Sequence record: LC739534.1
Origin: Escherichia phage phiWec181
Length of the DNA: 64,000 bases
Direction: 5' to 3' (one strand)
A program made the translations under genes and the position numbers. The notes under the pieces were generated by a model. The model was not told the origin of the DNA. It did no database searches and saw nothing but the letters and a program-made list of their open reading frames with translations. Positions within the stretch are counted from its first letter, which is position 1, and each line of letters opens with the position of its first letter. Positions 23,846 through 38,583 of the stretch are shown one piece after another.

Positions 23846-23853
23846 TTTAGCTC

Positions 23854-24528: not shown

Positions 24529-24538
24529 GATCAACTCC

Positions 24539-24745
24539 TCAATCGTTATTAGGCTTCCATTTTACAAACTTGAAGCAGTTATTGTCAAGGAATTTATTGG
24601 CATCTTTTTCCTGTTTCCAAACGGTGCATTGTTCTTTAAGGGCTATCTGTTCATTCTGCACATCTGATACCACATCAGCAAGGAGGATCAGAAATCCCAA
24701 AAAGACCAACATCAATAACAGATTAAAGAAAGTTTGAAAACTCAT
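24539..24745 (-). CDS. small membrane protein (68 aa)
   Basis: Hydrophobic FNLLLMLVFLGFLILL; SD GGGAGG upstream of ATG 24745. Confidence 0.45.
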   Translation of the reverse strand: MSFQTFFNLLLMLVFLGFLILLADVVSDVQNEQIALKEQCTVWKQEKDANKFLDNNCFKFVKWKPNND

Positions 24746-24996
24746 GCGTCCTCCCATTTGATCCACAGAATCATTTCTTCAACGTAAACCTCTTTACCTT
24801 TGTTATTGATGAAAGTGTATTCTATGAACTCCGCTGTATACTTTTTGTTGTATTGCTCCGCTGCTGGGATCGGACACTTTGTCATACGTGTCTCAACCCA
24901 TTGACGATGAATCGTTGCCTTGTTTTTGGGGTCAAACGGGTGTAAATAGTGTGGTTCCCCACCCTGACTTTGCCCCATCTTATTTTTCTTTGCCAT
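24742..24996 (-). CDS. hypothetical protein (84 aa)
   Basis: SD GGAGGAGG upstream of ATG 24996. Confidence 0.4.
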   Translation of the reverse strand: MAKKNKMGQSQGGEPHYLHPFDPKNKATIHRQWVETRMTKCPIPAAEQYNKKYTAEFIEYTFINNKGKEVYVEEMILWIKWEDA

Positions 24997-25324
24997 GCTG
25001 CACCTCCTCCAGACGGTCATACACCCAAGCAAGACGATCGAAGTTTTTGTGTTGGGTGCCGGACTTCTTCTCAATCCAATAACAAGGAATCCAACCTGAC
25101 AGATCCCACTCGCCATCGAACGGATAGTTCCATTCTAAACCTTCCGCTTCAAACTGCTCTACCATTTCATCAGAAAGGGAAATATACAAATCTTGGTCTT
25201 CCCCGCAATACACTTCCACTGCATGACACAAACCGCAAGCTTTGATGTTTTCGTGCGGATCTTGGCCCATAGCCTGATCCAACCACCACTCATAAAACTC
25301 CAGTAAAGCTTCACTTGATCTCAT
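24980..25324 (-). CDS. paralog family A member
   Basis: Family A pattern (LLEFYEWWL...GLC...YPFDG...RLAWVYDRL); SD GGGGAGGGGAAG upstream. Confidence 0.6.
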   Translation of the reverse strand: MRSSEALLEFYEWWLDQAMGQDPHENIKACGLCHAVEVYCGEDQDLYISLSDEMVEQFEAEGLEWNYPFDGEWDLSGWIPCYWIEKKSGTQHKNFDRLAWVYDRLEEVQHGKEK

Positions 25325-25697
25325 TTTCTTCCCCTCCCCCTTTTCCAATAAGCGGCGAAGCCGCGATCATCGACTTATAGACAACTTCGGCTGTTCGGGT
25401 TAGCCCCGTCCAGTCCTTCGCTGCCTCCAACATTTCTGGGGTAGGCTCTTTCGGGACCAAGACATACCCTTCTGGGACACACATCCCACTCTCTTTCTTT
25501 TCGGCTTCTTCCGACATAACTTGCCACACTCCATAGCTGCAATTCTCGAACAAACAATAGAGTTCAGATCCTTCATCATCCACGACAATGAAACAGTTCT
25601 CATCTGCTACTTTGGCATTATAGATCCGACCTATGGTCAAATAGTCTCGGACATTAATAAACTTAGAGGCAAGAAACTTCACACGAATGTTTTTCAT
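25311..25697 (-). CDS. hypothetical protein (128 aa)
   Basis: SD CGGAG upstream. Confidence 0.5.
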   Translation of the reverse strand: MKNIRVKFLASKFINVRDYLTIGRIYNAKVADENCFIVVDDEGSELYCLFENCSYGVWQVMSEEAEKKESGMCVPEGYVLVPKEPTPEMLEAAKDWTGLTRTAEVVYKSMIAASPLIGKGGGEENEIK

Positions 25698-25933
25698 TTC
25701 TTAAACTCCGAAAAGCAACCCAAAGAGATGACCCCGCCATTATAGACGATAGCAAACTGGCACCCTGTCTTTGTGTCTGTGATGATGTAATCTAAAGCCC
25801 CAGTCATGCCAGTTTGAACAAAGCGATCCTTGGTTACAACTTTTGAGTCCGAGAAGCCGTTAACTTTCGGCACAGTGTCTGCCATAACAGTAGGAGTCAC
25901 CAGAAACAATGCGATCAGTAATGCCTTTTTCAT
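25694..25933 (-). CDS. small secreted protein (79 aa) with signal peptide
   Basis: MKKALLIALFLVTPTVMA signal-like N-terminus; SD TGGAGGG upstream. Confidence 0.5.
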   Translation of the reverse strand: MKKALLIALFLVTPTVMADTVPKVNGFSDSKVVTKDRFVQTGMTGALDYIITDTKTGCQFAIVYNGGVISLGCFSEFKK

Positions 25934-25944
25934 AAACCCTCCAG

Positions 25945-26259
25945 TTAGCCTTGAAATGAATTGCGACGACCAATACGGGCACAGCGATCACCTTCATAAG
26001 AGGTGAAATCCAGACTCACTCGGAAGCCAGGGTGGGTATCAGAGATCCCCACATTCTTCACCCACATCTCGAAACTGCCGATATGTAAGGTCATAATGTT
26101 TACATACCATTCCAGCGTCACTTCTGTGCCGTCTACGCCTGTGATGTAGAAATCACGAGCGAAATGGGTGTCGTGCTTCTGTTTCTGACGCTCATACTTA
26201 GCGATTGCACCTTTCTCAACAGCCGCTTTCAGGATCACTTCTAACTCTTCTATTTGCAT
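25945..26259 (-). CDS. hypothetical protein (104 aa)
   Basis: SD AAAGGAGAGAGA upstream. Confidence 0.5.
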   Translation of the reverse strand: MQIEELEVILKAAVEKGAIAKYERQKQKHDTHFARDFYITGVDGTEVTLEWYVNIMTLHIGSFEMWVKNVGISDTHPGFRVSLDFTSYEGDRCARIGRRNSFQG

Positions 26260-26288
26260 GTTCTCTCTCCTTTATTGTTGATGCAACC

Positions 26289-26317
26289 ACTATAATATGT
26301 CTGACACTCTCTGTCAA
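26289..26317 (-). promoter_or_regulatory. sigma70-type promoter
   Basis: Minus strand TTGACA, 17-nt spacer, TATAGT upstream of CDS 25945..26259. Confidence 0.4.
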
Positions 26318-26529
26318 ATGTTTTCTGCTTCCAGCACTACTCTTTGGATCTGCACGTCATCAATGTTTGCGAGACAATTCCCTAAAATAAGCCCTGCTCG
26401 GAAAGGGGCTTGGAACTTGGAGGAAGCCCCCACTCGAATAGAATACTCCACACCGCACATAACATAATCTACACGGTACATATTCAAGCCCATGAACATG
26501 AGTTCTTCTTCCGACTCTTCGATTTGCAT
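26314..26529 (-). CDS. hypothetical protein (71 aa)
   Basis: SD AGAGGAGA upstream. Confidence 0.45.
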   Translation of the reverse strand: MQIEESEEELMFMGLNMYRVDYVMCGVEYSIRVGASSKFQAPFRAGLILGNCLANIDDVQIQRVVLEAENI

Positions 26530-26541
26530 TTTTATCTCCTC

Positions 26542-27096
26542 TTAGTTCCAACTAATAATGATGTGTTTGATAACCCCAAAAACGCTATATTCCGCTGTTG
26601 TCAACGTTACATCTAAACCTTTTGCACGCAACATTGCGGCTACTACATTCACCCCTTCTTTCTGTTTATCCATCTCTTCGTAAGAAGAAGGGCTGTTACA
26701 CAAACCAAAACTCGAAGGTTCAAAATATTTTTGGAATTTTCCCTGTTCTGCATAATCTTCAATCTCCAGCAGAACACAGTCTACCATTTCAGTAAAATGG
26801 GAATTTGCTTGCAGTGCTTTACTACGTAGTTTATCACGTAAACTTCCCACAAACCCTTCCTGATCTTCTGTTTGCTCTACTTCACAGAAAGGATGAAGTT
26901 CAGCCCAGTCCCAAACGTCTCCCTCTAAAGCAAACGTTGTGTTGTAGTTGAAGAAGGTGCAACGTGGAAGTTCCCCGTTGAAAGAATCCTTCAGCAAAAT
27001 GTATTTCTTACCATTTGCGTGGAAGAGTTCCCCTTTGATAACCTTGCCTTTCTGGATATCGCTGTCGGTGGAACGGGTGCAGATAAACTGTTTCAT
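26542..27096 (-). CDS. hypothetical protein (184 aa), paralog family B (C-terminal domain)
   Basis: C-terminal FEPSSFGLCNSP...AMLRAKGLDV resembles CDS 33333..33635; SD GAGAGGAGAA upstream. Confidence 0.55.
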   Translation of the reverse strand: MKQFICTRSTDSDIQKGKVIKGELFHANGKKYILLKDSFNGELPRCTFFNYNTTFALEGDVWDWAELHPFCEVEQTEDQEGFVGSLRDKLRSKALQANSHFTEMVDCVLLEIEDYAEQGKFQKYFEPSSFGLCNSPSSYEEMDKQKEGVNVVAAMLRAKGLDVTLTTAEYSVFGVIKHIIISWN

Positions 27097-27150
27097 GATT
27101 TTCTCCTCTCTGTTTCGATGAGATGATTATGACAAAGACAGATCCTTCTG

Positions 27151-27477
27151 TCAACCAATTATTTCTTCTGCTATACGTTCTTTTACCCAGTTCACACGAT
27201 CCACATTCAAATGACAACGGCTTCTTTCCGCTTCTAAGGTGTACTTTCCAAAATTACTGTTGAAAGGCAACACCATAACCAAATCTTTGCGGTAGAACTG
27301 CTCATGCATTTCATCCAGTACAGGTTCGTATCGTTCGCTTTCCCCCATATCGTAAAAATCATAGAGGTTCGAGCACAAACCTGTGCAACGGGTGAACGGT
27401 TCACCTTCAGGAGCACCAGCTTCCAACCATGCCAAATACGTGCGGTAAAATGTTAATAGTTCTTCGCTCATTTCCAC
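27151..27477 (-). CDS. paralog family A member
   Basis: Family A pattern (LLTFYRTYLAWL...GLC...LPFNSN...HLNVDRVNWVKERI); SD AAGGAGAG upstream. Confidence 0.6.
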   Translation of the reverse strand: MEMSEELLTFYRTYLAWLEAGAPEGEPFTRCTGLCSNLYDFYDMGESERYEPVLDEMHEQFYRKDLVMVLPFNSNFGKYTLEAERSRCHLNVDRVNWVKERIAEEIIG

Positions 27478-27680
27478 TCTCCTTCATGATAGTAAACCTC
27501 AAAAGAATAGTAAGTGAACATGCTCATTGTAACACCTCCCATTTCTGGATCAACGGAAGTGTTGTTATACATGTCAACTACTGCCTGACCCGCTGCTTTG
27601 GCATGTGCTGCCGAATCACAGGCACAAACATCTTTCTCCCACGGAAACTTGCCATCATACTTAAGACGGACAATCCACAT
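27468..27680 (-). CDS. hypothetical protein (70 aa)
   Basis: SD TGGAGGAA upstream. Confidence 0.45.
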   Translation of the reverse strand: MWIVRLKYDGKFPWEKDVCACDSAAHAKAAGQAVVDMYNNTSVDPEMGGVTMSMFTYYSFEVYYHEGEWK

Positions 27681-27682
27681 GA

Positions 27683-27910
27683 TTATTCCTCCATCTTAAA
27701 CCATTGAGGGAATACTTTACGGAAGACACGAGTTGCTTCCAAAAGGAATTCCAATTCTTTTTCCCGATCTGCGTTCCAACCGTGTACTTTAACATTGATC
27801 GCCAGTGCATCAGCGCGCTGACTCAATGCTTGGCAAATCGGATCGCGCAACACTACCGCATCATAAAACTGACAAACAGCTTCAAGTTCATACCAATTAT
27901 AAGCAGCCAT
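27683..27910 (-). CDS. hypothetical protein (75 aa)
   Basis: SD AGAGGAGAA upstream. Confidence 0.45.
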   Translation of the reverse strand: MAAYNWYELEAVCQFYDAVVLRDPICQALSQRADALAINVKVHGWNADREKELEFLLEATRVFRKVFPQWFKMEE

Positions 27911-28236
27911 TATTCATTCTCCTCTGCAATACGATCTTTAACCCAATTAATCCTGTCCACGTTCAGGTGACAGGCATCTGCATCTGACTCTAAAACATAT
28001 GCATCGTAGTTCTCATTGAAAGGGAGTTCTTGACTCAACCCTTTATAGTGGAACTGTGCGTGCATCTCATCTGACAAGGTTATTATAATGAGATTGAAGC
28101 CATCCCTGTGCACATAATCGAACAAGTTGGCACACAAACCCACACTTGGCAGAAACGGTCTGCCATAAGGAGCACCATTTTCAATCCATGCCAGATACTT
28201 TTTGTAAAACTTCATCAACTCTTCACTTGTTTTCAT
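27910..28236 (-). CDS. paralog family A member
   Basis: Closest relative of 27151..27477 (…GLCANL…HLNVDRINWVKDRIAEE); SD GAGGTGG upstream. Confidence 0.6.
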   Translation of the reverse strand: MKTSEELMKFYKKYLAWIENGAPYGRPFLPSVGLCANLFDYVHRDGFNLIIITLSDEMHAQFHYKGLSQELPFNENYDAYVLESDADACHLNVDRINWVKDRIAEENE

Positions 28237-28474
28237 TTAGCCACCTCGTCAGTTTTTCTTGCTCTTTGTTTGCGCGTTCTAAGCTTCTAAACTTTAAACA
28301 AAGGGGAAGAGTATCCACACCCATGCACAAGCTTTTATCTAAGCTGTGCTCCCCAACCAACCAAAGAGAATATGTTTGAACATCTAACCCATAGTTTCTG
28401 TCTTTCCATAATCTCACCCCAAGAACATCAAAAGGCGCTTCCGCGACTAAAGAAAGAAACCGATCTTTATTCAT
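28223..28474 (-). CDS. hypothetical protein (83 aa)
   Basis: SD GAGGTGG upstream. Confidence 0.45.
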   Translation of the reverse strand: MNKDRFLSLVAEAPFDVLGVRLWKDRNYGLDVQTYSLWLVGEHSLDKSLCMGVDTLPLCLKFRSLERANKEQEKLTRWLNENK

Positions 28475-28475
28475 G

Positions 28476-28820
28476 TTACACCACCTCTACCACATGAATG
28501 GACACATCGTCACGGTAGTATTTATCATCCCCGTAAATCTGGCCCAAACGTACACATGCGTCGTAGATAGAAAGGGCTGGGATCTGATAAGTTTTAATAC
28601 TGCCGTTATCTTTTGTATACCGGATCTCAAAAAGACGCATCACATCTTCAGCTACCACCTCAAAAGTGGCGCAGCCCATTCTCAACTCAATAACACAATC
28701 TGTTCCGTCATCACTATTGATCCAGTAGTAGTCCACATCCTCGTCTGTATTTGTCACAGGGTATTGCTTACCAACAGTGAAATATGGAACGGAAGATGAT
28801 ACGCACAAAAGTTTAGTCAT
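28476..28820 (-). CDS. hypothetical protein (114 aa)
   Basis: SD AAGGAGAGAA upstream of ATG 28820; ORF-track start 28877 lacks SD. Confidence 0.5.
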   Translation of the reverse strand: MTKLLCVSSSVPYFTVGKQYPVTNTDEDVDYYWINSDDGTDCVIELRMGCATFEVVAEDVMRLFEIRYTKDNGSIKTYQIPALSIYDACVRLGQIYGDDKYYRDDVSIHVVEVV

Positions 28821-28848
28821 TTTTCTCTCCTTATTGTCTTGATGTGGT

Positions 28849-28877
28849 AAGCATACCATACAGAAATCAGGTGTCAA
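28849..28877 (-). promoter_or_regulatory. sigma70-type promoter
   Basis: Minus strand TTGACA, ~16-nt spacer, TATGCT upstream of CDS 28476..28820. Confidence 0.35.
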
Positions 28878-28880
28878 GCT

Positions 28881-29081
28881 TTATCGACACAGATAGTTGT
28901 AACGATCTGCTTTATCCTCTGCTTCAGCAAAGTCAGCAATCAAGGAAGTTTTGAGTTCTTCCAACTCTTTCACCCAAGAGTCGTAATCGCTCTGTGTTTC
29001 CCCGATGGTTTGGAGAAAACAATCGTCGTAGCCAATAGACATGGCTAACTCGATAATACGTTCCAGTTTTTCTTCCATCAT
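28881..29081 (-). CDS. hypothetical acidic protein (66 aa)
   Basis: SD GAAGGAGAGA upstream. Confidence 0.45.
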   Translation of the reverse strand: MMEEKLERIIELAMSIGYDDCFLQTIGETQSDYDSWVKELEELKTSLIADFAEAEDKADRYNYLCR

Positions 29082-29602
29082 TTCTCTCCTTCTACAGATT
29101 CTTGTTTAATATGATAATAGGCACCCCGTGCCAGATACACTTCGTGTTCTACATCGCTGATCGGGAACCCATCAGGATTGGAAAGTCCTTGCTCAATAGT
29201 GAGAATAAGGCTTCGCAAACTAAGAGCCAGCAATTCTATACGTGCTTCAAGCACACGGTTGTGTTTACGAGAAATATCGTAGTTGCACTGTGCTTCCTTC
29301 CATTGTTCGGTGGCATGTTCCGCTACACGCAGAAGAACAGCTTTCTCCTGTTCAGCTTTAGATACTTCCCAGTTCACAGAAGTGTCAGCAGGAACAAGAA
29401 TGAAAGGTTCTTCTTTCTCTCCCACAACAGACCAACGCCCCAGCTTACTATCTTTCAATGTATCCCACGCATAGTCCCCATCGTCACAAGTAAATCGGAA
29501 TACCTCTCCTTCCTTGGCCTCCCATTCAGCCTCGTAAGTTTTACCAGTGGTAACAAAGGAATGTTTAGAGAGACTACAGTAAACAGCGAATACCTTGCTC
29601 AT
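29078..29602 (-). CDS. hypothetical protein (174 aa)
   Basis: SD GAGGAGG upstream. Confidence 0.55.
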   Translation of the reverse strand: MSKVFAVYCSLSKHSFVTTGKTYEAEWEAKEGEVFRFTCDDGDYAWDTLKDSKLGRWSVVGEKEEPFILVPADTSVNWEVSKAEQEKAVLLRVAEHATEQWKEAQCNYDISRKHNRVLEARIELLALSLRSLILTIEQGLSNPDGFPISDVEHEVYLARGAYYHIKQESVEGEK

Positions 29603-29844
29603 TCTACCTCCTCATTAGAAATTACAGACAAAGAGAGCGTAGCAAAACCTACAGAGATTGCTCGCCCCTCATCAATAGCTTCGTTAATCATATAACTTAC
29701 CAAACTGGTAGTAGCAAAATCACCATCTTCAGTAAGGCGAAACACTTCTTGATCCGGTTCGGTGATGAAAGGCAGAAGGTATTCTTTCTTTGTATCCAGG
29801 AAACGTACTACATGGAATAAACGGGTTTTATTTCCGTAAGACAT
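29599..29844 (-). CDS. hypothetical protein (81 aa)
   Basis: SD AAAGGAGAGA upstream of ATG 29844. Confidence 0.4.
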   Translation of the reverse strand: MSYGNKTRLFHVVRFLDTKKEYLLPFITEPDQEVFRLTEDGDFATTSLVSYMINEAIDEGRAISVGFATLSLSVISNEEVE

Positions 29845-30109
29845 TCTTTCTCTCCTTTGCTTTTGGATACTCCCAACCCTCTGGGAGATCTTCGTTAAGC
29901 ATCCACTCAAAAGGCCAGCGACAATAGCTATGCCACTTTCCATCCAAGTAGAGGCAATCTTCATCTACTGGTCCACAAGGATTGATAACTACAACACACC
30001 CTTTTGCTCGCCAATACTGAACTATTTCGGGGTAAAAACAAGAAACATCAGTCCACTCCCAAATACGTTCATCATTCAAACGATACGCTGCTGGTAATGT
30101 TTCTTTCAT
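29828..30109 (-). CDS. hypothetical Cys/Trp-rich protein (93 aa)
   Basis: ORF; weak SD AGAGG. Confidence 0.45.
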   Translation of the reverse strand: MKETLPAAYRLNDERIWEWTDVSCFYPEIVQYWRAKGCVVVINPCGPVDEDCLYLDGKWHSYCRWPFEWMLNEDLPEGWEYPKAKERKNVLRK

Positions 30110-30113
30110 CCGA

Positions 30114-30560
30114 TCAAACCTCTGTCAAAGAGAAACGCCAATCTTTACTACTACCCACACCAAGGAAGTAATAGTCTCCGGTACTAACGGAAATACGCCA
30201 AGCGGAAATCCAGTCAGGAATCTCTGGCTTATGGCTGTAGCCATAGCGATCACCACTTGAATCTGTTGCAATATAATTAACAAATTCAGGCACATCTAAA
30301 GTTTCACCTTGATACTCTACACGCTTGAAGCCATCTTCCACTTGTTCCTCCCCTTCTACCAGAAGGGCAAGAAGCTGAATGTGCGGACAAGTGAAATCTT
30401 GCCCTGGATAACGTGAACGGATATCTGTAAGCAGAGCGATCACCGCGTCTGCCAGATTTTGGTAATCTTCATACTTCACGAACGTCCCTTTTGTAGGATC
30501 ATCCGAACACAAAAGCCAAGCGTCGTTCGGATTCACTCCATAATGTTTAACTTTAGACAT
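30114..30560 (-). CDS. hypothetical protein (148 aa), paralog family D
   Basis: YEDYQNLADAVIALLTD resembles YDDYQKLAEATSWLVSML of CDS 33121..33333; SD AGGAGGG upstream. Confidence 0.5.
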   Translation of the reverse strand: MSKVKHYGVNPNDAWLLCSDDPTKGTFVKYEDYQNLADAVIALLTDIRSRYPGQDFTCPHIQLLALLVEGEEQVEDGFKRVEYQGETLDVPEFVNYIATDSSGDRYGYSHKPEIPDWISAWRISVSTGDYYFLGVGSSKDWRFSLTEV

Positions 30561-30640
30561 ACACCCTCCTATTCGTACATTAAGAAGCCCAAAATAATAA
30601 TCAGGGCAGCGAAAATAATAATCTCTATCATATCACATTC

Positions 30641-30853
30641 TCACTTATTCATAGAAGCAGGAAGAATCGAATGACACTTCCTGCACACTTTCACTTTAAC
30701 AAGATTATCACTCCCTTCTGCGTAAATCAAAGCTTCTTTCAACTTATTCCCACACGAACAATACTCTGTTAGGTCCAGGGGAACATCAAAAAGCCCGTAA
30801 TCGCTCTCATATTGTTTCTTACACAACGAAACCACTCTTGTAAAGTAAGACAT
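30641..30853 (-). CDS. small zinc-finger-like protein (70 aa)
   Basis: CSCGNK...CRKCH four-Cys arrangement; SD GAGGAA upstream. Confidence 0.45.
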   Translation of the reverse strand: MSYFTRVVSLCKKQYESDYGLFDVPLDLTEYCSCGNKLKEALIYAEGSDNLVKVKVCRKCHSILPASMNK

Positions 30854-30856
30854 TTC

Positions 30857-31078
30857 TTATTCCTCGATCACTTCTACATCCCAAGAGAAGAATACATAGT
30901 CACAACCTTCCCAAACATCATCCTCCAGGATCTCACAACCTTCCACTTTAGCCATCTCTTCTTGGGAAACGAAGAATGTTTGCAGATCATCGCTGAAAAG
31001 GTGTGCTTCAACAACAAAAGGAAGCTGAACGTTCTCGAAACCTACATAGCCTGTAACATCAATAATCTTAATTTTCAT
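30857..31078 (-). CDS. small acidic protein (73 aa), paralog family C
   Basis: MKIKIIDVTGYVGFENVQLPFVV... resembles CDS 35471..35701; SD AAAGGAGAA upstream. Confidence 0.5.
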   Translation of the reverse strand: MKIKIIDVTGYVGFENVQLPFVVEAHLFSDDLQTFFVSQEEMAKVEGCEILEDDVWEGCDYVFFSWDVEVIEE

Positions 31079-31269
31079 GATGGTTCTCCTTTATAAAGTA
31101 AACCTCTTAGTTCGCATTCTGCCACCAATAGACGGTTGGCTTGATTGTCCATAGACACGTCTATCTCCACACTCCAAGCATTAATATACACTTCGTTGAT
31201 CTTTGCGTCAAGCATTTGTGCAACTAAAGCTACGGCTCCAGCATATTCAAGTTTGATCTCTATAATCAT
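31075..31269 (-). CDS. hypothetical protein (64 aa)
   Basis: ORF with start overlapping upstream stop; no clear SD. Confidence 0.4.
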   Translation of the reverse strand: MIIEIKLEYAGAVALVAQMLDAKINEVYINAWSVEIDVSMDNQANRLLVAECELRGLLYKGEPS

Positions 31270-31553
31270 TTAAGATGATCCCTTACCCATTGGATACGGA
31301 CAGCATTGAGATGAGAACCATCTTCCTTGTATTCTTTCGCGTAATCATCCCAATCCTTATTGAACGGGAGTTCTGGGTCCAACCCCGCAGCTTCAAACTG
31401 TTTTGACATTTCATACAGCAAATCATCATCACAATAACCGAAGAAATAGAGATTAGTACATAAACCCCATTCACGGCGGAAAGGATTACCGTCTGGCGCT
31501 CCCGCGTCCACCCAATCTGCGTAAGCTTGATAGAACTCTCGTAATGTTTTCAT
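31266..31553 (-). CDS. paralog family A member
   Basis: Family A pattern (LREFYQAYADWV...GLC...LPFNKD...RIQWVRDHL); ATG 31553 overlaps stop of upstream small ORF. Confidence 0.6.
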   Translation of the reverse strand: MKTLREFYQAYADWVDAGAPDGNPFRREWGLCTNLYFFGYCDDDLLYEMSKQFEAAGLDPELPFNKDWDDYAKEYKEDGSHLNAVRIQWVRDHLK

Positions 31554-31708
31554 AACCACCCCTTATCTTGATAACCTTTAGAAAACCCTTCTTCCCACTC
31601 TTGAAACTGTTCAGGATGTTTATTGGGATCGTAAGGATTGTGGCGGCAAAACATGCCGAATTTATAACCCTGTGCGTAGCCTTTATCGAATGCGTTCTTA
31701 CTCTCCAT
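31550..31708 (-). CDS. small protein (52 aa) with KGY repeats
   Basis: MESKNAFDKGYAQGYKFG...SKGYQDKGWL; strong SD AGAGGAGAGAA upstream; not in ORF track. Confidence 0.4.
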   Translation of the reverse strand: MESKNAFDKGYAQGYKFGMFCRHNPYDPNKHPEQFQEWEEGFSKGYQDKGWL

Positions 31709-31720
31709 TGTTCTCTCCTC

Positions 31721-31993
31721 TTATTCAACGTTCCAGAAAACACCCCGTTTATCTGTAATGTCTATACGATACTCCTCCCACATCTTAGTTACAAGAGGTC
31801 TTTTCACATAACCGTGAAAATAAACTTCAGAATGCACCCCGTAAGCTGTGTAATTGTCAACAGTCCCTTCTACCTTGAAGATCACCATGTCTCCACCTAA
31901 AAATCTTTCAAAAACCAAGGTGAAACAGTCGAACTTAACAACGTCTCCCTCGAAGAGGGAGATATCTTTCACCTTACAGAAATGTCCGATCAT
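31721..31993 (-). CDS. hypothetical protein (90 aa)
   Basis: SD AAGGAGAGAA upstream. Confidence 0.5.
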   Translation of the reverse strand: MIGHFCKVKDISLFEGDVVKFDCFTLVFERFLGGDMVIFKVEGTVDNYTAYGVHSEVYFHGYVKRPLVTKMWEEYRIDITDKRGVFWNVE

Positions 31994-32002
31994 TTTCTCT
32001 CC

Positions 32003-32194
32003 TTAATACACATCACCTACAAACCAGATTTCTGGATCGCCATACTGATCCTTCTCGTAAGATTTGTAGACACTACAGCAATATTTCAAAACACCGTCCA
32101 CAAGGATTGTTGATCTTTCTTCTGGAATCTCTGTGATCTCCCCTTTGCGGGTTTCGAAGATGGTATCACCCTTTTCAATTAGTCGGATTTTCAT
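32003..32194 (-). CDS. hypothetical protein (63 aa)
   Basis: SD GGGAGG upstream. Confidence 0.5.
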   Translation of the reverse strand: MKIRLIEKGDTIFETRKGEITEIPEERSTILVDGVLKYCCSVYKSYEKDQYGDPEIWFVGDVY

Positions 32195-32195
32195 A

Positions 32196-32393
32196 TCATA
32201 CCTCCCTCAATGCGATTAGTGCGTTCACCAGATTATCAACACCTTGAGCATCCAGGGCAATAACATCAAAGTTAAACCCTGTATCAGTTGGGACTTTACG
32301 TGTTATGGTGTAATAATCCTCTGCATGACGTTCAACATATGCGTATGGGTAACTGGTGTTCGGATCATGTTTTACGCGAATAGATGTTTTCAT
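32196..32393 (-). CDS. hypothetical protein (65 aa)
   Basis: SD AAGAGGAGAA upstream. Confidence 0.5.
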   Translation of the reverse strand: MKTSIRVKHDPNTSYPYAYVERHAEDYYTITRKVPTDTGFNFDVIALDAQGVDNLVNALIALREV

Positions 32394-32863
32394 GTTTTGT
32401 TCTCCTCTTTAGTTGCAACACGGAACTTATTAGCTTCTCTCACCTGGAACATGAAGTCTTTCTTCTTCATAATCCCGATGGACATTTCATCCAGTTCTTC
32501 TGGATGGATCTGGAGATTACGGCGATCGGACAGGAACCAAGATTTCTCCCACCAGAAGCGTTGATCCTCCTCCTTGTGGTGCTTGTATTCCTCTTTTTCT
32601 TTTTCTGTGAGGATCTTGAAGCGATTCTTTCCTTCCCAACGCATTGCTGTGTTAAAAGGAATACCGTTATCCCCATTATACACTGCGGAAGTAGGAAGGC
32701 AATAGCCAGTTTCTGCGTCGATCATTTGGTAGTGAAATTCACATTCCAGTTCAACGTACTCTAAATCCCCATAAAAATCACTGATCAAGAAAGCAATGTA
32801 AGTTTCACCATGTTCGGGAACAAATTCTTGCTTTGTCAACATCTCCAGTTTCAAACCTGCCAT
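32390..32863 (-). CDS. hypothetical protein (157 aa)
   Basis: SD AAAGGAGAAAG upstream. Confidence 0.55.
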   Translation of the reverse strand: MAGLKLEMLTKQEFVPEHGETYIAFLISDFYGDLEYVELECEFHYQMIDAETGYCLPTSAVYNGDNGIPFNTAMRWEGKNRFKILTEKEKEEYKHHKEEDQRFWWEKSWFLSDRRNLQIHPEELDEMSIGIMKKKDFMFQVREANKFRVATKEENKT

Positions 32864-32875
32864 TGCTTTCTCCTT

Positions 32876-33109
32876 TTAGTCGAACCAGTTATATTCAGAA
32901 GGGTAACGCGCATAGTTTGGCTTATACCCCAGCCTTTTCATCTTAACAGACATACGAGTGAAGCCAAAGGTTTTTTTGCCCTTAGACATAAACTTCTTCC
33001 CACTCTTCATTGGCTTCTTAGGGTCTTTGATCGCCTGGTTTAACGCTCGCGCAAGCCACAAAGTGTATGCGCTCGGTGCTTGGTTAACTTTCATCTTGTT
33101 ACCCTTCAT
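32876..33109 (-). CDS. small basic protein (77 aa)
   Basis: Lys-rich (KDPKKPMKSGKKFMSKGKK); SD AAGAGGAGA upstream. Confidence 0.5.
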   Translation of the reverse strand: MKGNKMKVNQAPSAYTLWLARALNQAIKDPKKPMKSGKKFMSKGKKTFGFTRMSVKMKRLGYKPNYARYPSEYNWFD

Positions 33110-33120
33110 ACGATCTCCTC

Positions 33121-33333
33121 TTATAAAATTTCAAGTTCTTCGAGTGTTTCTTTCAGGGAAACTGGCAAATCACACTCCACATCCAGCATCGAAACCAACC
33201 AAGAGGTGGCTTCGGCTAACTTCTGGTAATCATCATACAACACATAACCCCCTTCGTCAACCTCTACGATGCAACGATAAGATGCAAAAGGGTTTTTGCT
33301 CATTTCTTCAATGTCATAACGTTCAACAACCAT
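33121..33333 (-). CDS. small acidic protein (70 aa), paralog family D
   Basis: SD AGAGGTGA upstream of ATG 33333; related to CDS 30114..30560. Confidence 0.45.
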   Translation of the reverse strand: MVVERYDIEEMSKNPFASYRCIVEVDEGGYVLYDDYQKLAEATSWLVSMLDVECDLPVSLKETLEELEIL

Positions 33334-33635
33334 TATTTCACCTCTGACCAATCAACAGTAATACATTGATAAGCTTGATGATTTATGTCCAATTCAATAT
33401 AAACCACAAGCCCACGCTCGCGGAGTGCTGTTACCACCATATACATTAACTCGCGCTGTCTGGCGATCCCATCTTGGGAAAGAGGACGATTACAGAAGCC
33501 AAAATCAGAGGGCGTGAAATCCCGTTGGTAATTTCCCGCCCGTGCTTCTGAAAAACACGTCTCAATAACCTCTTCAATAGGAAAACCGATGGAAGCTTCT
33601 TTGGCAATACTGCGTAACTGTTCGGTCAAATTCAT
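33333..33635 (-). CDS. hypothetical protein (100 aa), paralog family B
   Basis: FTPSDFGFCNRP...TALRERGLVV resembles C-terminus of CDS 26542..27096; SD GAGAGGAGAA upstream. Confidence 0.5.
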   Translation of the reverse strand: MNLTEQLRSIAKEASIGFPIEEVIETCFSEARAGNYQRDFTPSDFGFCNRPLSQDGIARQRELMYMVVTALRERGLVVYIELDINHQAYQCITVDWSEVK

Positions 33636-33700
33636 TTCATTTCTCCTCTCGTCTGTGTATGCAAAGATTATCTACCAACGTGATCCTTATGTCAAGCTAT

Positions 33701-34213
33701 TTATTCAAAATAAACTTTAACTTGTGCCGTGCTGTAGCGATTGTAAATCTCGACCACGGCTTTAGCATTATCTTCTTTATAGGATTCTGCCAGATCTTCC
33801 GCATCTCGGATATTTCCGGCAACACCTACGAGAACAAGATCCACCATTACAAGATATTTTTTATCTTCTGGACTCTCTTGAGAAGGCTCTTGCACTGGTT
33901 CTTCCTTTGGTTCTGGTGGCAAACCAACCTCTGCCTCAACATAAGAGTCAAACCAAGTGATATCGTTAAAATGCTTTAACTCGTGTTTGGACAGCAGCAT
34001 ACCACAATCAACGAAAGCACCTGCATCAGCTTCAAAGACATGCCCTTCAAATGTTTGGAACTTAACCACATCCCCTTTTTCTGTTGTCTCCAACACCAGG
34101 AAGTGTTTTGGCCCCAGCAGATCTGAAATCTTTCGGTTCAGATTGACAGCTTCACGGAACGCATTGTACTCTTTTGTATTTTTGAATTTATAAGAATGCC
34201 CTTGAATAAACAT
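33701..34213 (-). CDS. hypothetical protein (170 aa), paralog family E
   Basis: SD AAGAGGAGA upstream; tandem duplicate of next gene. Confidence 0.55.
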   Translation of the reverse strand: MFIQGHSYKFKNTKEYNAFREAVNLNRKISDLLGPKHFLVLETTEKGDVVKFQTFEGHVFEADAGAFVDCGMLLSKHELKHFNDITWFDSYVEAEVGLPPEPKEEPVQEPSQESPEDKKYLVMVDLVLVGVAGNIRDAEDLAESYKEDNAKAVVEIYNRYSTAQVKVYFE

Positions 34214-34225
34214 AGTAGTCTCCTC

Positions 34226-34744
34226 TTAGTCAAATATCACATTACTTACGAGTTTCGCTGTGCTACGCAGAGTATAAATCTCCACAAGCTTCCCTGGACT
34301 CTCTTTCTTCGCTTTCGTGGCTCTTTCTTGTGCCTCTGAAAAAGATGATACAGTATGCACTACTACGTAGTCAACAATAACTGCAAACTTTTTAGGCACA
34401 ATATCGGCATCAGGACGATCGTCGTGCGCAGAAACATCCTTACCTGGCTGTGGTGCCAGCGGCGGCAAGCCTGTCATTAACAGTGCACCTCCATCAAAGA
34501 AATATCCGATTTCATCGTGTGCAATAAGGAAGCGATCCATTTGAGCATCACCTACTCCCTGATCCCAGAACACTTTCCTATCTTCTACGAAGATGATAAG
34601 GGACAGGACATTCCCATGAACATCCGTGTTAACTGGTTGGAACCAGTGATCCCCAATCGCTTCAGCCAATTGTTTAGAGATTGATTGAAACAACTCTTGG
34701 TACGTGCCTTGTCTGAAACGATATACATTATTTGTTTTAAACAT
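34226..34744 (-). CDS. hypothetical protein (172 aa), paralog family E
   Basis: SD AAGAGGAGA upstream; C-terminal KKFAVIVDYVVVHT...VEIY resembles previous gene. Confidence 0.55.
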   Translation of the reverse strand: MFKTNNVYRFRQGTYQELFQSISKQLAEAIGDHWFQPVNTDVHGNVLSLIIFVEDRKVFWDQGVGDAQMDRFLIAHDEIGYFFDGGALLMTGLPPLAPQPGKDVSAHDDRPDADIVPKKFAVIVDYVVVHTVSSFSEAQERATKAKKESPGKLVEIYTLRSTAKLVSNVIFD

Positions 34745-34766
34745 TAGTGTCTCCTCTTGTATTAAA

Positions 34767-35225
34767 TTATTGTTCTACTTCACGCAGCCACGCTAAAGCC
34801 TCTTCTGGGGATTTATCGAAGTCGTTGAGCAGTTCCTGCTCCAACTCCTCTTTCATTTCATTCAGCACTTGTAGTTGACGTGCCTTTTTCCACAAGGCTA
34901 CACGATAATCAACACCTTGTGGTGCTTCTTCTGCCACTTTTACATTACCTGTCGGGCAGCGAGGAAGATAGTCTTCAATATCTTCCAAGGCACGGCGATA
35001 ATTGGGGTCCATGTAGTTCACACGAACACGATTACATTCTAACAAAGTGGCACGGAACACTTCATAACGTGTTTCGGATAGAATGTGTTTCACACAGACA
35101 GCACCAGTATCTTCTGAAATTACGCTATACACTTCCAGTAGGCTGGAGTTTCTCTTGACATAATCTGTAACGCATTGCACATATGCTCCCAATATTGTGG
35201 AAGCTCTCGCTGGTTTTTCGCTCAT
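34767..35225 (-). CDS. hypothetical protein (152 aa)
   Basis: SD GGGGAGG upstream. Confidence 0.55.
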   Translation of the reverse strand: MSEKPARASTILGAYVQCVTDYVKRNSSLLEVYSVISEDTGAVCVKHILSETRYEVFRATLLECNRVRVNYMDPNYRRALEDIEDYLPRCPTGNVKVAEEAPQGVDYRVALWKKARQLQVLNEMKEELEQELLNDFDKSPEEALAWLREVEQ

Positions 35226-35461
35226 TTTCTACCTCCCCATAATGCCACCATTTTATTAAAGATGGAAGCGCGTCGTGCACGAGATGCTAACATACGATTG
35301 GCTTCTTCGTAGCCATAGAACAAACGATCTGTCAATACCAACGCCAGTGTCTTCTCTTGCAGAGACTGGCAATTATGTTCAGGACGACAGTCGTGCCCTG
35401 CATCGAAGTACAGATTGTTCAGATAGTTGTTTGCTCTCTCATTCTGCTTTGCAGTGATCAC
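35222..35461 (-). CDS. hypothetical protein (79 aa), GTG start
   Basis: ORF-track start is GTG preceded by AAGGAGGG; start uncertain. Confidence 0.4.
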   Translation of the reverse strand: MITAKQNERANNYLNNLYFDAGHDCRPEHNCQSLQEKTLALVLTDRLFYGYEEANRMLASRARRASIFNKMVALWGGRK

Positions 35462-35470
35462 GATCCCTCC

Positions 35471-35701
35471 TTAATGAACAATTTCATATTCGTGAGGAAG
35501 GAAAACATAATCTTCCCCTTCACCTGCATCTTCTTCATCCCAGAAGAAACCTGGTATCTCAATCATCTTCGAAAAGCGCACATGCGCCAACCCACTATAC
35601 CCTATCTGTGCATTCAGCACAACGGGTAACTCTGCACCAATCAGACCTACATACCCGCAAGCGGTTTCAATACGAATTTTCATACGTTTTATGTTATGCA
35701 T
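35471..35701 (-). CDS. small protein (76 aa), paralog family C
   Basis: Related to CDS 30857..31078; weak SD. Confidence 0.45.
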   Translation of the reverse strand: MHNIKRMKIRIETACGYVGLIGAELPVVLNAQIGYSGLAHVRFSKMIEIPGFFWDEEDAGEGEDYVFLPHEYEIVH

Positions 35702-35903
35702 CTTTCATATTCTCCACGAAGTGACGAGCAACAGGATTCCCGTAGAAATATTCATTGATGAAATCGATCACACAGGTTTCACTGCCTGTCACAACGGACG
35801 GTGCGAAGTTTCGGAACTGCACGAGTACACGACTTGCGTTAGCAAGGGCGTTCACACGATCAGTATTAGCTAAATACAAGGATACAGTTTTCATATTCGA
35901 CAT
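35694..35903 (-). CDS. hypothetical protein (69 aa)
   Basis: SD TGAGGAGA upstream. Confidence 0.5.
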   Translation of the reverse strand: MSNMKTVSLYLANTDRVNALANASRVLVQFRNFAPSVVTGSETCVIDFINEYFYGNPVARHFVENMKDA

Positions 35904-35974
35904 TTCAATCTCCTCATTGGCTATCTGTTATGCGCGGTATTGCGCCTCTCATGCAAACAAGTATACAGACATTT

Positions 35975-36343
35975 TTATTCAATGCAAGCATTATTTGCAT
36001 CTTCGATGCGATCTTTCACCCATTGAAGACGTAACGTGTTGGTATGACACGCCAAGTCTATACACTCTGAAAGGTAATCCATGCAATCTGCATTGAACGG
36101 AAGATTGTAGTCCAGTTTTGCACATGTAAATTGTTTCCTCATTTCGTATTTCAAACTATCCAACAAACGATCACGCCATCTTTTATCTTCTTCTCTAATT
36201 ACCTCACCAACAAAATCATCTACATAATCTACCAGACAACCACACAAGCCACTCGTTGTGCGATTCATTGCCGGATGGTTGGCAATCCATGCTTTATAGA
36301 ATCGTATTAATGTTGCACTGCTCAACGGAATGTTACTTTTCAT
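35975..36343 (-). CDS. paralog family A member
   Basis: Family A pattern (LIRFYKAWIANH...GLCGCL...LPFNAD...RLQWVKDRI); SD GAAGGAGG upstream of ATG 36343. Confidence 0.6.
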   Translation of the reverse strand: MKSNIPLSSATLIRFYKAWIANHPAMNRTTSGLCGCLVDYVDDFVGEVIREEDKRWRDRLLDSLKYEMRKQFTCAKLDYNLPFNADCMDYLSECIDLACHTNTLRLQWVKDRIEDANNACIE

Positions 36344-36698
36344 TATTGCCTCCTTCACAATCCTGGATACGATCTTCTACCCATTGCACACGCAGTCGGT
36401 TGAGATGACATTTTCTGTTTTCACATTCTTCCTCGTAGTCGAAGAAGTTGGTATTGAAAGGTGTGGTTTTAGACAACCCTGCATACATAAACTGTACCAG
36501 CATTTCATCAGCTAAAGCTTCACGCATCTCCCAAAACTGATCCACATCGGCACCATGTATCGGACACAATACGTCCCATGCAAAATTGCCTAAACATACG
36601 CACAAGCCATTCGCTGTGTTCACCAACTCACTACGGTGAGCCATCCAATTCTTATAGAACATCAGAAGAGTATCACTACTCAAGGGAATATTTTTCAT
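36333..36698 (-). CDS. paralog family A member
   Basis: Family A pattern; N-terminus MKNIPLSSDTLLMFYKNWM; SD AAAGGAG upstream. Confidence 0.6.
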   Translation of the reverse strand: MKNIPLSSDTLLMFYKNWMAHRSELVNTANGLCVCLGNFAWDVLCPIHGADVDQFWEMREALADEMLVQFMYAGLSKTTPFNTNFFDYEEECENRKCHLNRLRVQWVEDRIQDCEGGNNEK

Positions 36699-36699
36699 A

Positions 36700-37080
36700 T
36701 CAGGCTCCTTTACGATTATGGAAACAATCTTTCACTCGCTCTTGCACCCACTCTACACGAAGCTTGTTTTCATGCGCTCTGTTGTGGTTATGCTCTTGCA
36801 CATAGTCTTCGTAGTTCACATTAAAGGGAACACTGACAGACAATCCTGCACAACGAAATTGTTTCTTCATTTCTTTTAATGTCGCATCACTTAGGGCACA
36901 AAGCTGATTTGCCTGTTCCTCACTGAAGTTACTGTCCCACATCTCATCCCAGATAAAACTATCCAAGCATACACATAACCCATGCCTTGTGCGCTCTTTA
37001 GTATGATGATCAGCAAGCCAACTTTCATAGAAAGCTAACAACACCGGACTACTCAACGGAACATTTTTACTCTCTTGCAT
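36700..37080 (-). CDS. paralog family A member
   Basis: Family A pattern; SD AGAGAGGAGA upstream of ATG 37080; ORF-track start 37167 lacks SD. Confidence 0.6.
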   Translation of the reverse strand: MQESKNVPLSSPVLLAFYESWLADHHTKERTRHGLCVCLDSFIWDEMWDSNFSEEQANQLCALSDATLKEMKKQFRCAGLSVSVPFNVNYEDYVQEHNHNRAHENKLRVEWVQERVKDCFHNRKGA

Positions 37081-37133
37081 GATAATCTCCTCTCTTGGTT
37101 TCATGACAAACATCCTAATTCTCAACGAGGAAC

Positions 37134-37162
37134 ATCTTACGATCAATCCTCGGCAATTACAA
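37134..37162 (-). promoter_or_regulatory. putative sigma70-type promoter for the three tandem family-A genes
   Basis: Minus strand TTGTAA, 17-nt spacer, TAAGAT (same -10 as array promoters). Confidence 0.35.
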
Positions 37163-37437
37163 TTCATTTATCATCGCTTTTCCCTATCAATTATTCTATA
37201 TATACCTGTTATTTTTGACACCCCCTTTGGTCAAATATTAATCGGCAAAATATCTGGGGGTACTCTATAAAATGATGCCCCCTGTTCCTGCAATTTATCG
37301 AGGAGAATATCATTCGACTATCATCGGCAAAGAGACAGAAAAGCCTTTGGTAGCAAGGATTTATGGCGAGTACGTCAGGACTGCTTAACGCGAATTTTTC
37401 GGCCCCTCCACTTCTGCGAGCCGGAATCCTCAAATAT

Positions 37438-37470
37438 CAATGAGAATAATTATCATTATCATTCGTATTC
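37438..37470. promoter_or_regulatory. Fur-box-like palindromic operator motif
   Basis: AATGAGAATAATTATCATTATCATT: 16/19 identity to Fur consensus GATAATGATAATCATTATC; related copies at 52026..52140. Confidence 0.35.
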
Positions 37471-37859
37471 AATAACTTAGGCGATCTTTTCCCCTGCTAT
37501 AAGGTCGGGCCTAACTTAACCATCACTTTTCAAACAATCCTTTATCAATCAACTACTTAACAACCTAAACATATGATTACTACGGTGTAAAGGTGCCGCC
37601 CATAACAGACTACCTATAAAATAGATGAGAATGATTATTATTCAGACAATTCTTACAACAAATCGACCAACAAATCAAGAATTTTCTTATTTTTATTCAC
37701 GTTTAAGAGAACGTGCTCAACATTCCGCTACGCGTAACGGTTCGCCCCCAAAAGATTAGCCTTTGCTTTCCTGTATATTTATACACTATGTGCAAGGTGT
37801 CGCTACACGCTCGCCTTGCCCCGCATAATCCTTCACTGTGCTAATGATTTCATAGTGCA

Positions 37860-38060
37860 ACAATAACACTTATTATTATATTACGCTTAATTATTCTTAC
37901 ATACAATGCTAATAATAAGCCAGCGTAATTAGTGTAAGCGTAATACGCTTGCAATAATTGCAAGCTACATAATCACAAGAAATAACTATCACCGATAGTT
38001 ATGATTGTGGGGGTGTAGTTGGCTTATTATTAGCTCGCTACGTGTCCGGCGTAGCGTGCT
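37860..38060. repeat. cluster of four distinct perfect palindromes in non-coding DNA
   Basis: AAGCGTA-a-TACGCTT, GCTTGCAAT-a-ATTGCAAGC, ATAACTATC-acc-GATAGTTAT, CGCTACG-N7-CGTAGCG within ~120 bp. Confidence 0.45.
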
Positions 38061-38099
38061 AATGATGAGGCTTGGAATGATTCATTTTGCAATTATTAC

Positions 38100-38480: not shown

Positions 38481-38583
38481 GTATGGTTATTCGTTTGCTG
38501 GTTGATTAGCTCGATACCGCGATTTATTCAGTTTTGTTCTGTGTCGGTTTTTCATAGGCGGAATCTATCAACATTGTTCGGGC

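Follow-up and report, generated by a model that had tools for sequence, protein, structure and literature searches.

Homologous small-gene pairs, probably old duplicates, in the early-gene block of a phAPEC8/phi92-type Escherichia coli phage

Background

Families of paralogous genes in the early region are a textbook, ordinary feature of large lytic phages. A first-pass annotation of 64,000 nucleotides of Escherichia phage phiWec181 (LC739534.1; this whole stretch is called the window below) listed, beyond a family A, six pairs of similar small genes (B, C, D, E, H and F). It regarded them as products of recurrent local duplication, which would have driven the expansion of a hyperplastic accessory region. 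This raises the question whether the members of each pair are homologous, how old the pairs are, and how much of the region they account for. Our literature searches did not turn up any account of these paralog families for phAPEC8, phi92 or the Wec phages.

Results

The early-gene block

The window is ~99-100% identical to phiWec179 (an Escherichia phage of the Stephanstirmvirinae, proposed genus "Wecvirus"); it stems from an E. coli phage of the phAPEC8/phi92 type and contains the early-gene block adjoining the genome end. The features considered here are:

16872..37080, minus strand: early-gene block of 64 densely packed small genes (median 86 aa), according to the annotation
37081..38625, no strand: 1.5-kb stretch without annotated CDS upstream of the early block (annotation gap)
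33667..33695, minus strand: candidate sigma-70-like promoter (TTGACA, 17 nt spacer, GATAAT; a consensus match only) in the E1-B2 intergenic gap
26542..27096, minus strand: B1, 184 aa, with an N-domain (aa 1-80) and a B domain (aa 84-184)
33333..33635, minus strand: B2, 100 aa, a stand-alone B domain and positional orthologue of phi92 gp005
22572..22841, minus strand: possible third, very divergent B member (weak evidence)
30857..31078, minus strand: C1, 73 aa, 71% identical to its phAPEC8 orthologue
35471..35701, minus strand: C2, 76 aa, 68% identical to its phAPEC8 orthologue
30114..30560, minus strand: D1, with an N-terminal D domain (aa 1-67) and an unrelated C-terminal domain (aa 73-148)
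33121..33333, minus strand: D2, 70 aa, most similar to the C-terminal portion of phAPEC8 gp238
33701..34213, minus strand: E1, with a GoF-like N-domain (aa 2-90), a Pro/Glu-rich linker and a beta-beta-alpha-beta C-domain
34226..34744, minus strand: E2, tandem paralog 12 bp upstream of E1
19456..19683, minus strand: H1, 75 aa, in tandem with H2
19694..19909, minus strand: H2, 71 aa, the closer of the two to phi92 gp024
62478..62786, plus strand: F1, 102 aa, with phAPEC8 gp034 and phi92 gp205 as orthologues
62786..63091, plus strand: F2, 101 aa, tandem copy of F1

All 12 intervals of the six pairs are complete ORFs on the strand given, and they match CDSs of phiWec179 annotated as 'hypothetical protein'. 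Families A, B, C, D, E and H lie in the early block, where paralogs make up 19 of the 64 genes. The block (~20 kb) is collinear with phi92 gp001-gp036 according to the synteny table, and blastn showed the 1.5-kb stretch upstream of it to be a homologue of phi92's left terminal repeat and leader, in the opposite orientation. The best five sigma-70-like sites (11/12 match) are all located on the minus strand, which is the coding strand of the block, four of them at short intergenic gaps. A tRNA scan of the window found no tRNA genes. The genes of the block encode small, lineage-restricted proteins and are probably transcribed early by the host RNA polymerase; their role is presumably host takeover.

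Homology of the pairs

For each pair, the Smith-Waterman score was compared with those of 2000 shuffles, none of which scored as high as the observed pair. In addition, all 159 annotated genes were compared with each other by means of phmmer (threshold E < 1e-3), and profiles were aligned with hhalign; pair F is absent from the latter comparison, as it lies outside the compared block. The results were as follows:

Pair B: z = 19.1; 39% identity, 75 aligned columns; phmmer E = 3e-10; hhalign probability 97.8%
Pair C: z = 15.5; 36% identity, 69 aligned columns; phmmer E = 2e-8; hhalign probability 100%
Pair E: z = 17.5; 28% identity, 152 aligned columns; phmmer E = 7e-9; hhalign probability 96.9%
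Pair H: z = 13.6; 36% identity, 66 aligned columns; phmmer E = 3e-5; hhalign probability 97.6%
Pair F: z = 25.9; 45% identity, 94 aligned columns; phmmer E = 4e-17
Pair D: z = 6.4; 39% identity, merely 28 aligned columns; phmmer E = 6e-4; hhalign probability 73-84%

All six pairs were thus recovered by phmmer. Homology is clear for B, C, E, H and F: their scores lie far above the shuffled controls (z = 14-26), most of the shorter protein takes part in the significant similarity, and both members match the same PHROGs. The paralogy proposed for these five pairs was borne out, as was the tandem arrangement of E, which is strict and also seen in H and F, whereas the copies of B, C and D are 2.6-6.2 kb apart. 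The phmmer comparison also yielded two pairs that the first-pass annotation had not listed. One of them joins 25311-25697(-) to 62088-62285(+); the other, 53663-54676(-) and 58247-59200(+), is homing-endonuclease-like.

Two pairs turned out to be related in part of their length. B1 and B2 are homologous, as had been claimed, but they are no whole-gene duplicates: the similarity is at the domain level, because B1 has an additional N-terminal domain and residues 84-184 alone match B2. The phAPEC8 orthologue of B1, gp218, is 84% identical to it. The N-domain of B1 is found elsewhere with different C-termini; in Mt1B1_P17, gp187 consists of this N-domain fused to the next gene, the B domain being deleted. 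The possible third B member was aligned with B2 by hhalign at 36% probability over 83 columns, and the B HMM matches its phAPEC8 orthologue at E = 0.001. For pair D, similarity was detected as well, but it does not amount to whole-gene paralogy: the common part is a motif of ~25-60 aa, 24-28 of 70 residues align, and no PHROG is matched by both members. Since 2 of 20 shuffled proteomes gave a pair below 1e-3, D is borderline by phmmer alone. An iterated D HMM connects D2 with the N-terminal domain of D1 (70% identical to phi92 gp008), with phi92 gp008 and gp025 and with the C-terminus of phAPEC8 gp238. Judged from these alignments, D is a short domain in common and no whole-gene duplicate.

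Age and copy number

Within pairs B, C, E, H and F, amino acid identity is 28-45%. When the paralogous genes were compared by blastn, B, C, E and H gave no match at all, while F gave one of 67 nt at 70%. Within 16-47 kb, repeats did not exceed 46 nt, nor did any of them join two paralogs. For B, C and H, syntenic orthologues of each of the two copies are present in phAPEC8, ESCO13, Mt1B1_P17 and WPEC4. A single B, a single E and a single H occur in phi92 and two relatives from IMG/VR, a single F in phi92 and alia; family C has no homologue in phi92-type genomes, and the D domain is already present in two copies in phi92. The lack of meaningful DNA similarity, the syntenic orthologues and the single copies in phi92-type phages together indicate that the duplications are old rather than recent.

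Copy numbers vary among the relatives (E 1-4 units, F 1-2, B 1-2, C 1-2). F2 occurs in ~35 of 123 records; phAPEC8, alia and Klebsiella phage KP2025 lack it. At the E locus, phages have 1, 2, 3 or 4 units, and paralogs have exchanged their C-domains. In ESCO13, two E units are fused into one protein, gp008, of 261 aa. In phAPEC8 gp239, the N-domain is 99% identical to that of ESCO13 gp007 and the C-domain 100% identical to that of ESCO13 gp008; this chimera is the footprint left by a deletion within the E array.

In a mutual-closest-relative comparison, which was based on scores, the partners of three pairs were not each other's best match: B2, E1 and H2 score better with their phi92 homologue than with their partner (B2-gp005 2e-19 vs B1-B2 3e-10; E1-gp003 1e-14 vs E1-E2 7e-9; H2-gp024 7e-11, at 43% identity with this single phi92 homologue, vs H1-H2 3e-5). 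Because one copy is nearer to phi92 than to its partner, these scores fall short of demonstrating that the copies arose simply by duplication once the phi92 lineage had split off; the pattern would fit asymmetric divergence, a more ancient duplication with later loss, or a diverged copy acquired from a relative through recombination. No outgroup beyond the Stephanstirmvirinae was found for these families, which makes gain indistinguishable from loss. A duplication of a multi-gene segment, suggested by the order A-x-C at 35975-35471 and 31266-30857, was rejected, because the intervening genes (35694-35903 and 31075-31269) are dissimilar in the profile-profile all-versus-all comparison.

Sequence and structure searches for functions

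No function could be assigned to families B, C, D, H and F by database searches: none of the members of any family, E included, has a Pfam match or anything meaningful in NCBIfam, and a sequence search of the PDB with the B and E profiles gave nothing below E = 0.016. The AF2 model of B2 reached a pLDDT of 82.6 and a pTM of 0.73. Foldseek found no match for it in the PDB (best E = 0.3, TM below 0.4), and the BFVD matches were limited to uncharacterised phage proteins. The fold of the B domain is predicted with confidence and lacks an analogue among solved structures. Its distribution is narrow, with 3 loci only in IMG/VR, 5, 17 and 11 clusters in word-index searches of 5.8 billion proteins, and ~7 genuine clusters in a full HMMER scan of 1.84 billion representatives; none of these searches revealed distant relatives that could hint at a function.

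For family E, hhalign aligned the N-domain with residues 5-89 of T4 GoF (93.9%, E = 1.6e-7, 83 columns), and PHROG goF families were matched at 7e-6 and 4e-3; MotB.1 of T4 gave 6.6%, i.e. no link. In the AF2 model of E1, residues 7-73 form five strands and two helices at pLDDT 60-74, and the linker, which is gap-rich and Pro/Glu-rich in the alignment, is below 50 for residues 76-116. Foldseek matched the model to two-domain proteins of T4-like phages, one of them annotated as GoF, with low TM-scores; due to the low overall confidence of the model (pLDDT 58) these fold matches are merely suggestive. GoF, Frd.2 as well as MotB.1 of T4 constitute a family of early proteins with a predicted LSm-like fold, which has been reported to be conserved among Tevenvirinae (Kim et al. 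2025, PMC12152347). Family E resembles it in having an N-domain of ~90 aa that is joined by a flexible linker to a C-domain which varies, as well as several paralogs per genome encoded within the early region. In contrast, the E genes are found in Stephanstirmvirinae rather than Tevenvirinae, their C-domain is different, and the copies are arranged in tandem, 1-4 in number, with chimeras. The N-domain of the E proteins is homologous to that of T4 GoF, for which an LSm/SH3-like fold is predicted; this is the sole functional lead, and the E proteins may act on RNA.

Discussion

The pairs are, in our judgement, quite likely old intragenomic duplicates of genes or domains within the early block beside the left terminal repeat of a phiWec179-type phage. 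Tandem copies would have been produced when replicating genomes, or co-infecting relatives, recombined unequally or illegitimately. The copies would then have diverged to the identities seen today, with E, H and F keeping the tandem state; the copies of B, C and D would have been split apart by insertion of other small ORFs, and some copies (the two-domain proteins B1 and D1) would have gained or lost domains. Most duplications would be older than the split between Phapecoctavirus and the proposed "Wecvirus". In the E array and at F2, birth-and-death evolution would be continuing via deletion, fusion and formation of chimeras.

That the similarities merely reflect chance, or the common composition of short, acidic early proteins with AT-rich genes, is very improbable. 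Pair D comes nearest to it, given its short alignment, its phmmer E-value within the range of the shuffled proteomes and the missing common PHROG; yet even here hhalign gave 73-84% with independent orthologue profiles, and the iterated HMM connects the members of the domain family. For B, C, E, H and F, chance is refuted by the shuffles (z at least 13.6, 0/2000 as high), by full-length alignments and, in B, C, E and H, by the agreement of cross-PHROG matches with hhalign at 97-100%. A weightier alternative, which we nevertheless regard as unlikely, is that the second copies are xenologs, i.e. diverged alleles from related phages which recombined in beside or near the resident copy. The N-domain of E1 is indeed more similar to unit 2 of ESCO13 gp008 (35%) and to phi92 gp003 (29%) than to that of its neighbour E2 (18%), and close E1 homologues occur in 5 records only; the patchy distribution of F2 and the mosaic character of the region, with orthologue identities from 24% to 99% across the early block, point in the same direction. 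However, B, C and H have kept their two copies in synteny across two genera, so that any acquisition must be as old as a duplication, and the families are restricted to the subfamily Stephanstirmvirinae. Moreover, misaligned recombination between co-infecting relatives is in practice the same process as unequal crossing-over.

The early block comprises ~35 ORFs in 11 kb in phi92, ~51 ORFs in 17 kb in phAPEC8 and 64 ORFs in 20 kb in the window, and its size climbs with paralog content; family A has 2, 7 and 9 copies, respectively. Compared to phi92, the window has ~29 extra genes, of which only ~11-12 are added paralog copies, the remainder being unrelated ORFans. The idea of recurrent local duplication finds support in the single B, E, H and F of the phi92-type sister genus, with the qualification that the events are ancient. 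Similarly, the notion of a hyperplastic accessory region agrees with the mosaic gene content (18 of the 64 genes lack a phAPEC8 counterpart covering >70% of their length) and with the growth of the block, but most pairs represent conserved, old paralogy rather than present-day hyperplasticity.

In phi92 (Justusliebigvirus), E, B, the D domain, H and F have direct homologues in gp003, gp005, gp008, gp024 and gp205, which keep the gene order beside the left terminal repeat as in the window; unlike there, they are single-copy, and the early block of phi92 is roughly half as large. The T4 superfamily reportedly has a 'plastic periphery', plastic and hyperplastic regions being attributed to large lytic phages. 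The window resembles it in its small early ORFs of no assigned function, variable content and mosaic identity, whereas most of its pairs are stably inherited across two genera, and plasticity is focused on the E array, F2, and the intervals 25.3-26.5 kb and 28.5-32.9 kb. Poxviruses are said to possess a 'genomic accordion', in which genes for host interaction are amplified in tandem by recombination and then contracted. The E locus is similar in its tandem copy-number change; in contrast to recent, near-identical amplifications, the copies in the window are old and 18-45% identical.

Conclusion

The phenomenon is ordinary in kind and leaves current understanding unchanged. What has been gained is that 19 of the 64 'hypothetical' early genes are now sorted into six families, and that positional orthologues of phi92 genes have been identified among the paralog copies. 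More speculatively, and with considerable doubt on our part, the E array might be a diversifying set of LSm-like, GoF-type RNA-binders outside the T4 group, whose N- and C-domains are reshuffled within the array by recombination, so that other RNAs of the host or the phage are targeted or defences of the host are escaped, and B might represent a new alpha/beta fold restricted to the subfamily. If this were true, the block would be a natural experiment in the birth-and-death evolution of post-transcriptional takeover factors. The link between E and GoF takes the GoF family beyond the Tevenvirinae and supplies a naturally variable tandem array for its study.

Homology of the paralog pairs

In addition to the larger family A, six small paralog gene pairs had been proposed in the first-pass annotation:

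26542..27096 (-) and 33333..33635 (-): B1 and B2
30857..31078 (-) and 35471..35701 (-): C1 and C2
30114..30560 (-) and 33121..33333 (-): D1 and D2
33701..34213 (-) and 34226..34744 (-): E1 and E2, in tandem
19456..19683 (-) and 19694..19909 (-): H1 and H2
62478..62786 (+) and 62786..63091 (+): F1 and F2

All twelve intervals (12/12) were translated into intact ORFs on the expected strand; each is annotated as a 'hypothetical protein' CDS. In Smith-Waterman comparisons, none of 2000 shuffles reached the observed score in any of the six pairs. The z-values were 25.9 (F), 19.1 (B), 17.5 (E), 15.5 (C), 13.6 (H) and 6.4 (D); identities within the aligned parts were 45%, 39%, 28%, 36%, 36% and 39%, respectively. 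An all-versus-all phmmer comparison of the 159 annotated proteins recovered the six pairs and the nine members of family A. As 2 of 20 shuffled proteomes, which served as control, contained a spurious pair under E = 1e-3, the pairs H (E = 3e-5) and above all D (E = 6e-4) need extra support. Both members match common PHROGs in each of the pairs B, C, E and H, and orthologue-based profiles aligned in hhalign at a probability of 100% for C, 97.8% for B, 97.6% for H and 96.9% for E. Family F lies outside the block compared by hhalign; F1 and F2 both match phrog_7812. Judged by these scores (z of 13.6-25.9), chance similarity is excluded for B, C, E, F and H, which were rightly named as paralog families. 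For D chance is unlikely, but what D1 and D2 have in common is a short module: the alignment comprises only 28 residues, and hhalign aligns only 24-29 columns at 73-84% probability.

The comparison added two pairs absent from the first-pass annotation. The genes 25,311-25,697 (-) and 62,088-62,285 (+), on opposite strands and 36 kb apart, are a further paralog or domain pair, similar at phmmer E = 8e-6 and both matching phrog_27862 and phrog_10169. The genes 53,663-54,676 (-) and 58,247-59,200 (+) are homologous at E = 6e-20 and both contain CapR-homology domains and show PHROG 'endonuclease' matches; the latter also has weak, sub-threshold GIY-YIG/T5orf172-like matches. These two are probably homing endonucleases, i.e. 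copies of a mobile element and not ordinary duplicates. Finally, family B may have a third member in 22,572-22,841 (-), which would be very divergent: it aligns over its full length, albeit weakly (hhalign 36%), with B2 and the B1 C-domain, and its phAPEC8 orthologue is matched by the B HMM at E = 0.001.

Domain architecture and predicted function

A ~100-aa domain defines family B; 17 of its positions are invariant in six sequences, with the motifs F-PS-FG, LR--GL, and W. B2 consists of this domain alone; B1 (184 aa) carries an additional N-domain of 80 aa, and the alignment covers B1 residues 85-163. In many Phapecoctavirus genomes, the B1 N-domain is found with another C-terminus. An iterated D HMM joins D2 with D1 residues 1-67, two phi92 proteins (gp008, gp025), and the C-terminal end of phAPEC8 gp238; the C-terminal half of D1 is unrelated. 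In family E proteins, a gap-rich Pro/Glu linker connects the N-domain (about 90 aa) to the C-domain (about 55 aa).

Pfam and NCBIfam searches of the family proteins gave nothing meaningful, nor did a PDB sequence search with the B and E profiles give any match. The E profile aligned with residues 5-89 of GoF, a T4 early protein, at 93.9% hhalign probability; E1 also matches PHROG 'goF' families, and the architecture is common to GoF and family E. As described by Kim et al. (PMC12152347), the GoF(D25Y) variant stabilises an mRNA. The AF2 model of E1 is of low confidence (pLDDT 58; below 50 in linker residues 76-116); its BFVD matches are two-domain proteins of T4-like phages, one of them annotated as GoF. 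The B2 model is confident (pLDDT 82.6, pTM 0.73), with the element order alpha-alpha-beta-alpha-beta-beta; it has no analogue in the PDB, and its structural neighbours are only uncharacterised phage proteins. When 1.84 billion representative proteins were scanned in full with HMMER, only about 7 genuine B clusters emerged.

The predicted early block and its relatives

Megablast assigns the window to Escherichia phage phiWec179/phiWec186 (LC739533/LC739535), with 100% identity across 26,000-36,000. The window stems from a very close relative, a sibling isolate or another record, and is not identical to LC739533.1, since small indels and substitutions occur past ~38.6 kb: the offset rises to +107 nt, and several proteins are 84-99% identical, one only 67%. 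For phages of this type, which belong to the Stephanstirmvirinae, the new genus "Wecvirus" has been proposed (PMC12695924). At 1-3,127 (+), the window encodes four dTDP-rhamnose pathway genes (rffG, rfbA-like, rfbC, rfbD), which phi92 also has (gp064-gp067).

The block 16,872-37,080 (-) comprises 64 genes with a median of 86 aa, whose start and stop codons mostly overlap or nearly abut. It is collinear with phi92 gp001-gp036, which come after the left terminal repeat of phi92. The 1.5 kb upstream of the block (37,081-38,625) is AT-rich, free of annotated genes, and contains CAACCAAC-type repeats; its identity with the equivalent phAPEC8 gap is 79%, and it shows collinear homology, in reverse orientation, to the left terminal repeat and leader of phi92. 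This stretch is probably the physical genome end together with an early control region, and the terminal repeat would lie at about 37.2-37.7 kb. The coding strand carries all five of the best sigma-70-like sites in the block (11/12 matches), four of which lie in short intergenic gaps, one of these sites being between E1 and B2; yet the total of 49 versus 42 ± 5.5 signals no overall enrichment. We therefore infer, rather than demonstrate, early transcription by the host polymerase.

Two further elements were observed. Within the block, 23,854-24,528 (-) encodes a serine recombinase, recognised by its Resolvase N-terminal domain (Pfam, E = 6e-17); the phi92 homologue gp053 (55% identical) is encoded on the opposite strand and is not part of the equivalent block. 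At 39,880-46,170, small minus-strand genes are preceded by a conserved cassette of ~45-67 nt that occurs in 5-8 copies. Its + strand sequence is GCGGCACCATTGCCGCCCTACGTGATACA, in which a conserved motif comes after a GC-rich hairpin. The cassette looks like a unit of terminator and phage-specific promoter; the equivalent phAPEC8 places carry annotated PHIRE/MEME promoters.

Block size rises with paralog content, from ~35 ORFs in 11 kb (phi92) via ~51 in 17 kb (phAPEC8) to 64 in 20 kb (window), with two, seven, and nine copies of family A. Among the ~29 additional genes relative to phi92, ~11-12 are extra paralog copies; the rest are unrelated ORFans. Duplication is therefore a substantial but not the sole contributor to the larger block; the direction may be gain in the window or loss in phi92. 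The proposed duplication-driven, hyperplastic accessory region is partly supported.

Age and turnover of the probable duplications

For B, C, and H, each of the two copies has a syntenic orthologue in phAPEC8, Mt1B1_P17, WPEC4, and ESCO13 (54-85% identity to the window); E and F2 vary. In phi92 and two phi92-like IMG/VR contigs, there is one B (gp005), one E (gp003), and one H (gp024), and no family C homologue was found; F is single-copy in alia, Klebsiella phage KP2025, and phAPEC8. Given these shared and single copies, most duplications predate the Phapecoctavirus/"Wecvirus" split. Within 16-47 kb, no direct DNA repeat links the paralogs of any pair, and blastn of the genes against their partners found at most 67 nt at 70% (F). 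The recurrent local duplication first proposed is thus mostly old paralogy.

The E locus contains one unit in phi92, two in the window and phAPEC8, three in Mt1B1_P17 and WPEC4, and four in ESCO13. ESCO13 gp008 (record L011, 18,602-19,387; 261 aa) is a fused double-E in which a single C-domain follows two E-type N-domains. The fused or chimeric E genes in the phAPEC8 record L004 are:

19,919-20,356: gp238, an E-type N-domain joined to a D-type C-terminus
20,366-20,815: gp239, a chimera of two E genes

By domain-wise identity, the gp239 N-domain is 99% identical to ESCO13 gp007 and the C-domain 100% to ESCO13 gp008, which marks a deletion between tandem paralogs. In Mt1B1_P17 gp187, the B1 N-domain is fused with the counterpart of the neighbouring gene that comes next (26314-26529), and the B domain is lost. 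F2 was found in only ~35 of 123 records. Birth-and-death can still be seen at the E and F loci.

The main rival explanation is that the second copies are diverged copies acquired from relatives; it is possible because one copy of each pair resembles the phi92 homologue more closely than it does its own partner. The best reading of the pairs is old duplication, after which the copies would have diverged, become interspersed, and gained or lost domains inside a mosaic early block. The block's composition is mixed: 18 of its 64 genes lack a phAPEC8 counterpart spanning >70% of their length, and orthologue identities range from 24% to 99%. Paralog families of this sort are ordinary in the genomes of large lytic phages; the new points, which are modest, would be the link of family E to GoF outside the Tevenvirinae, the variable array of chimeric E genes, and the predicted orphan fold of family B.
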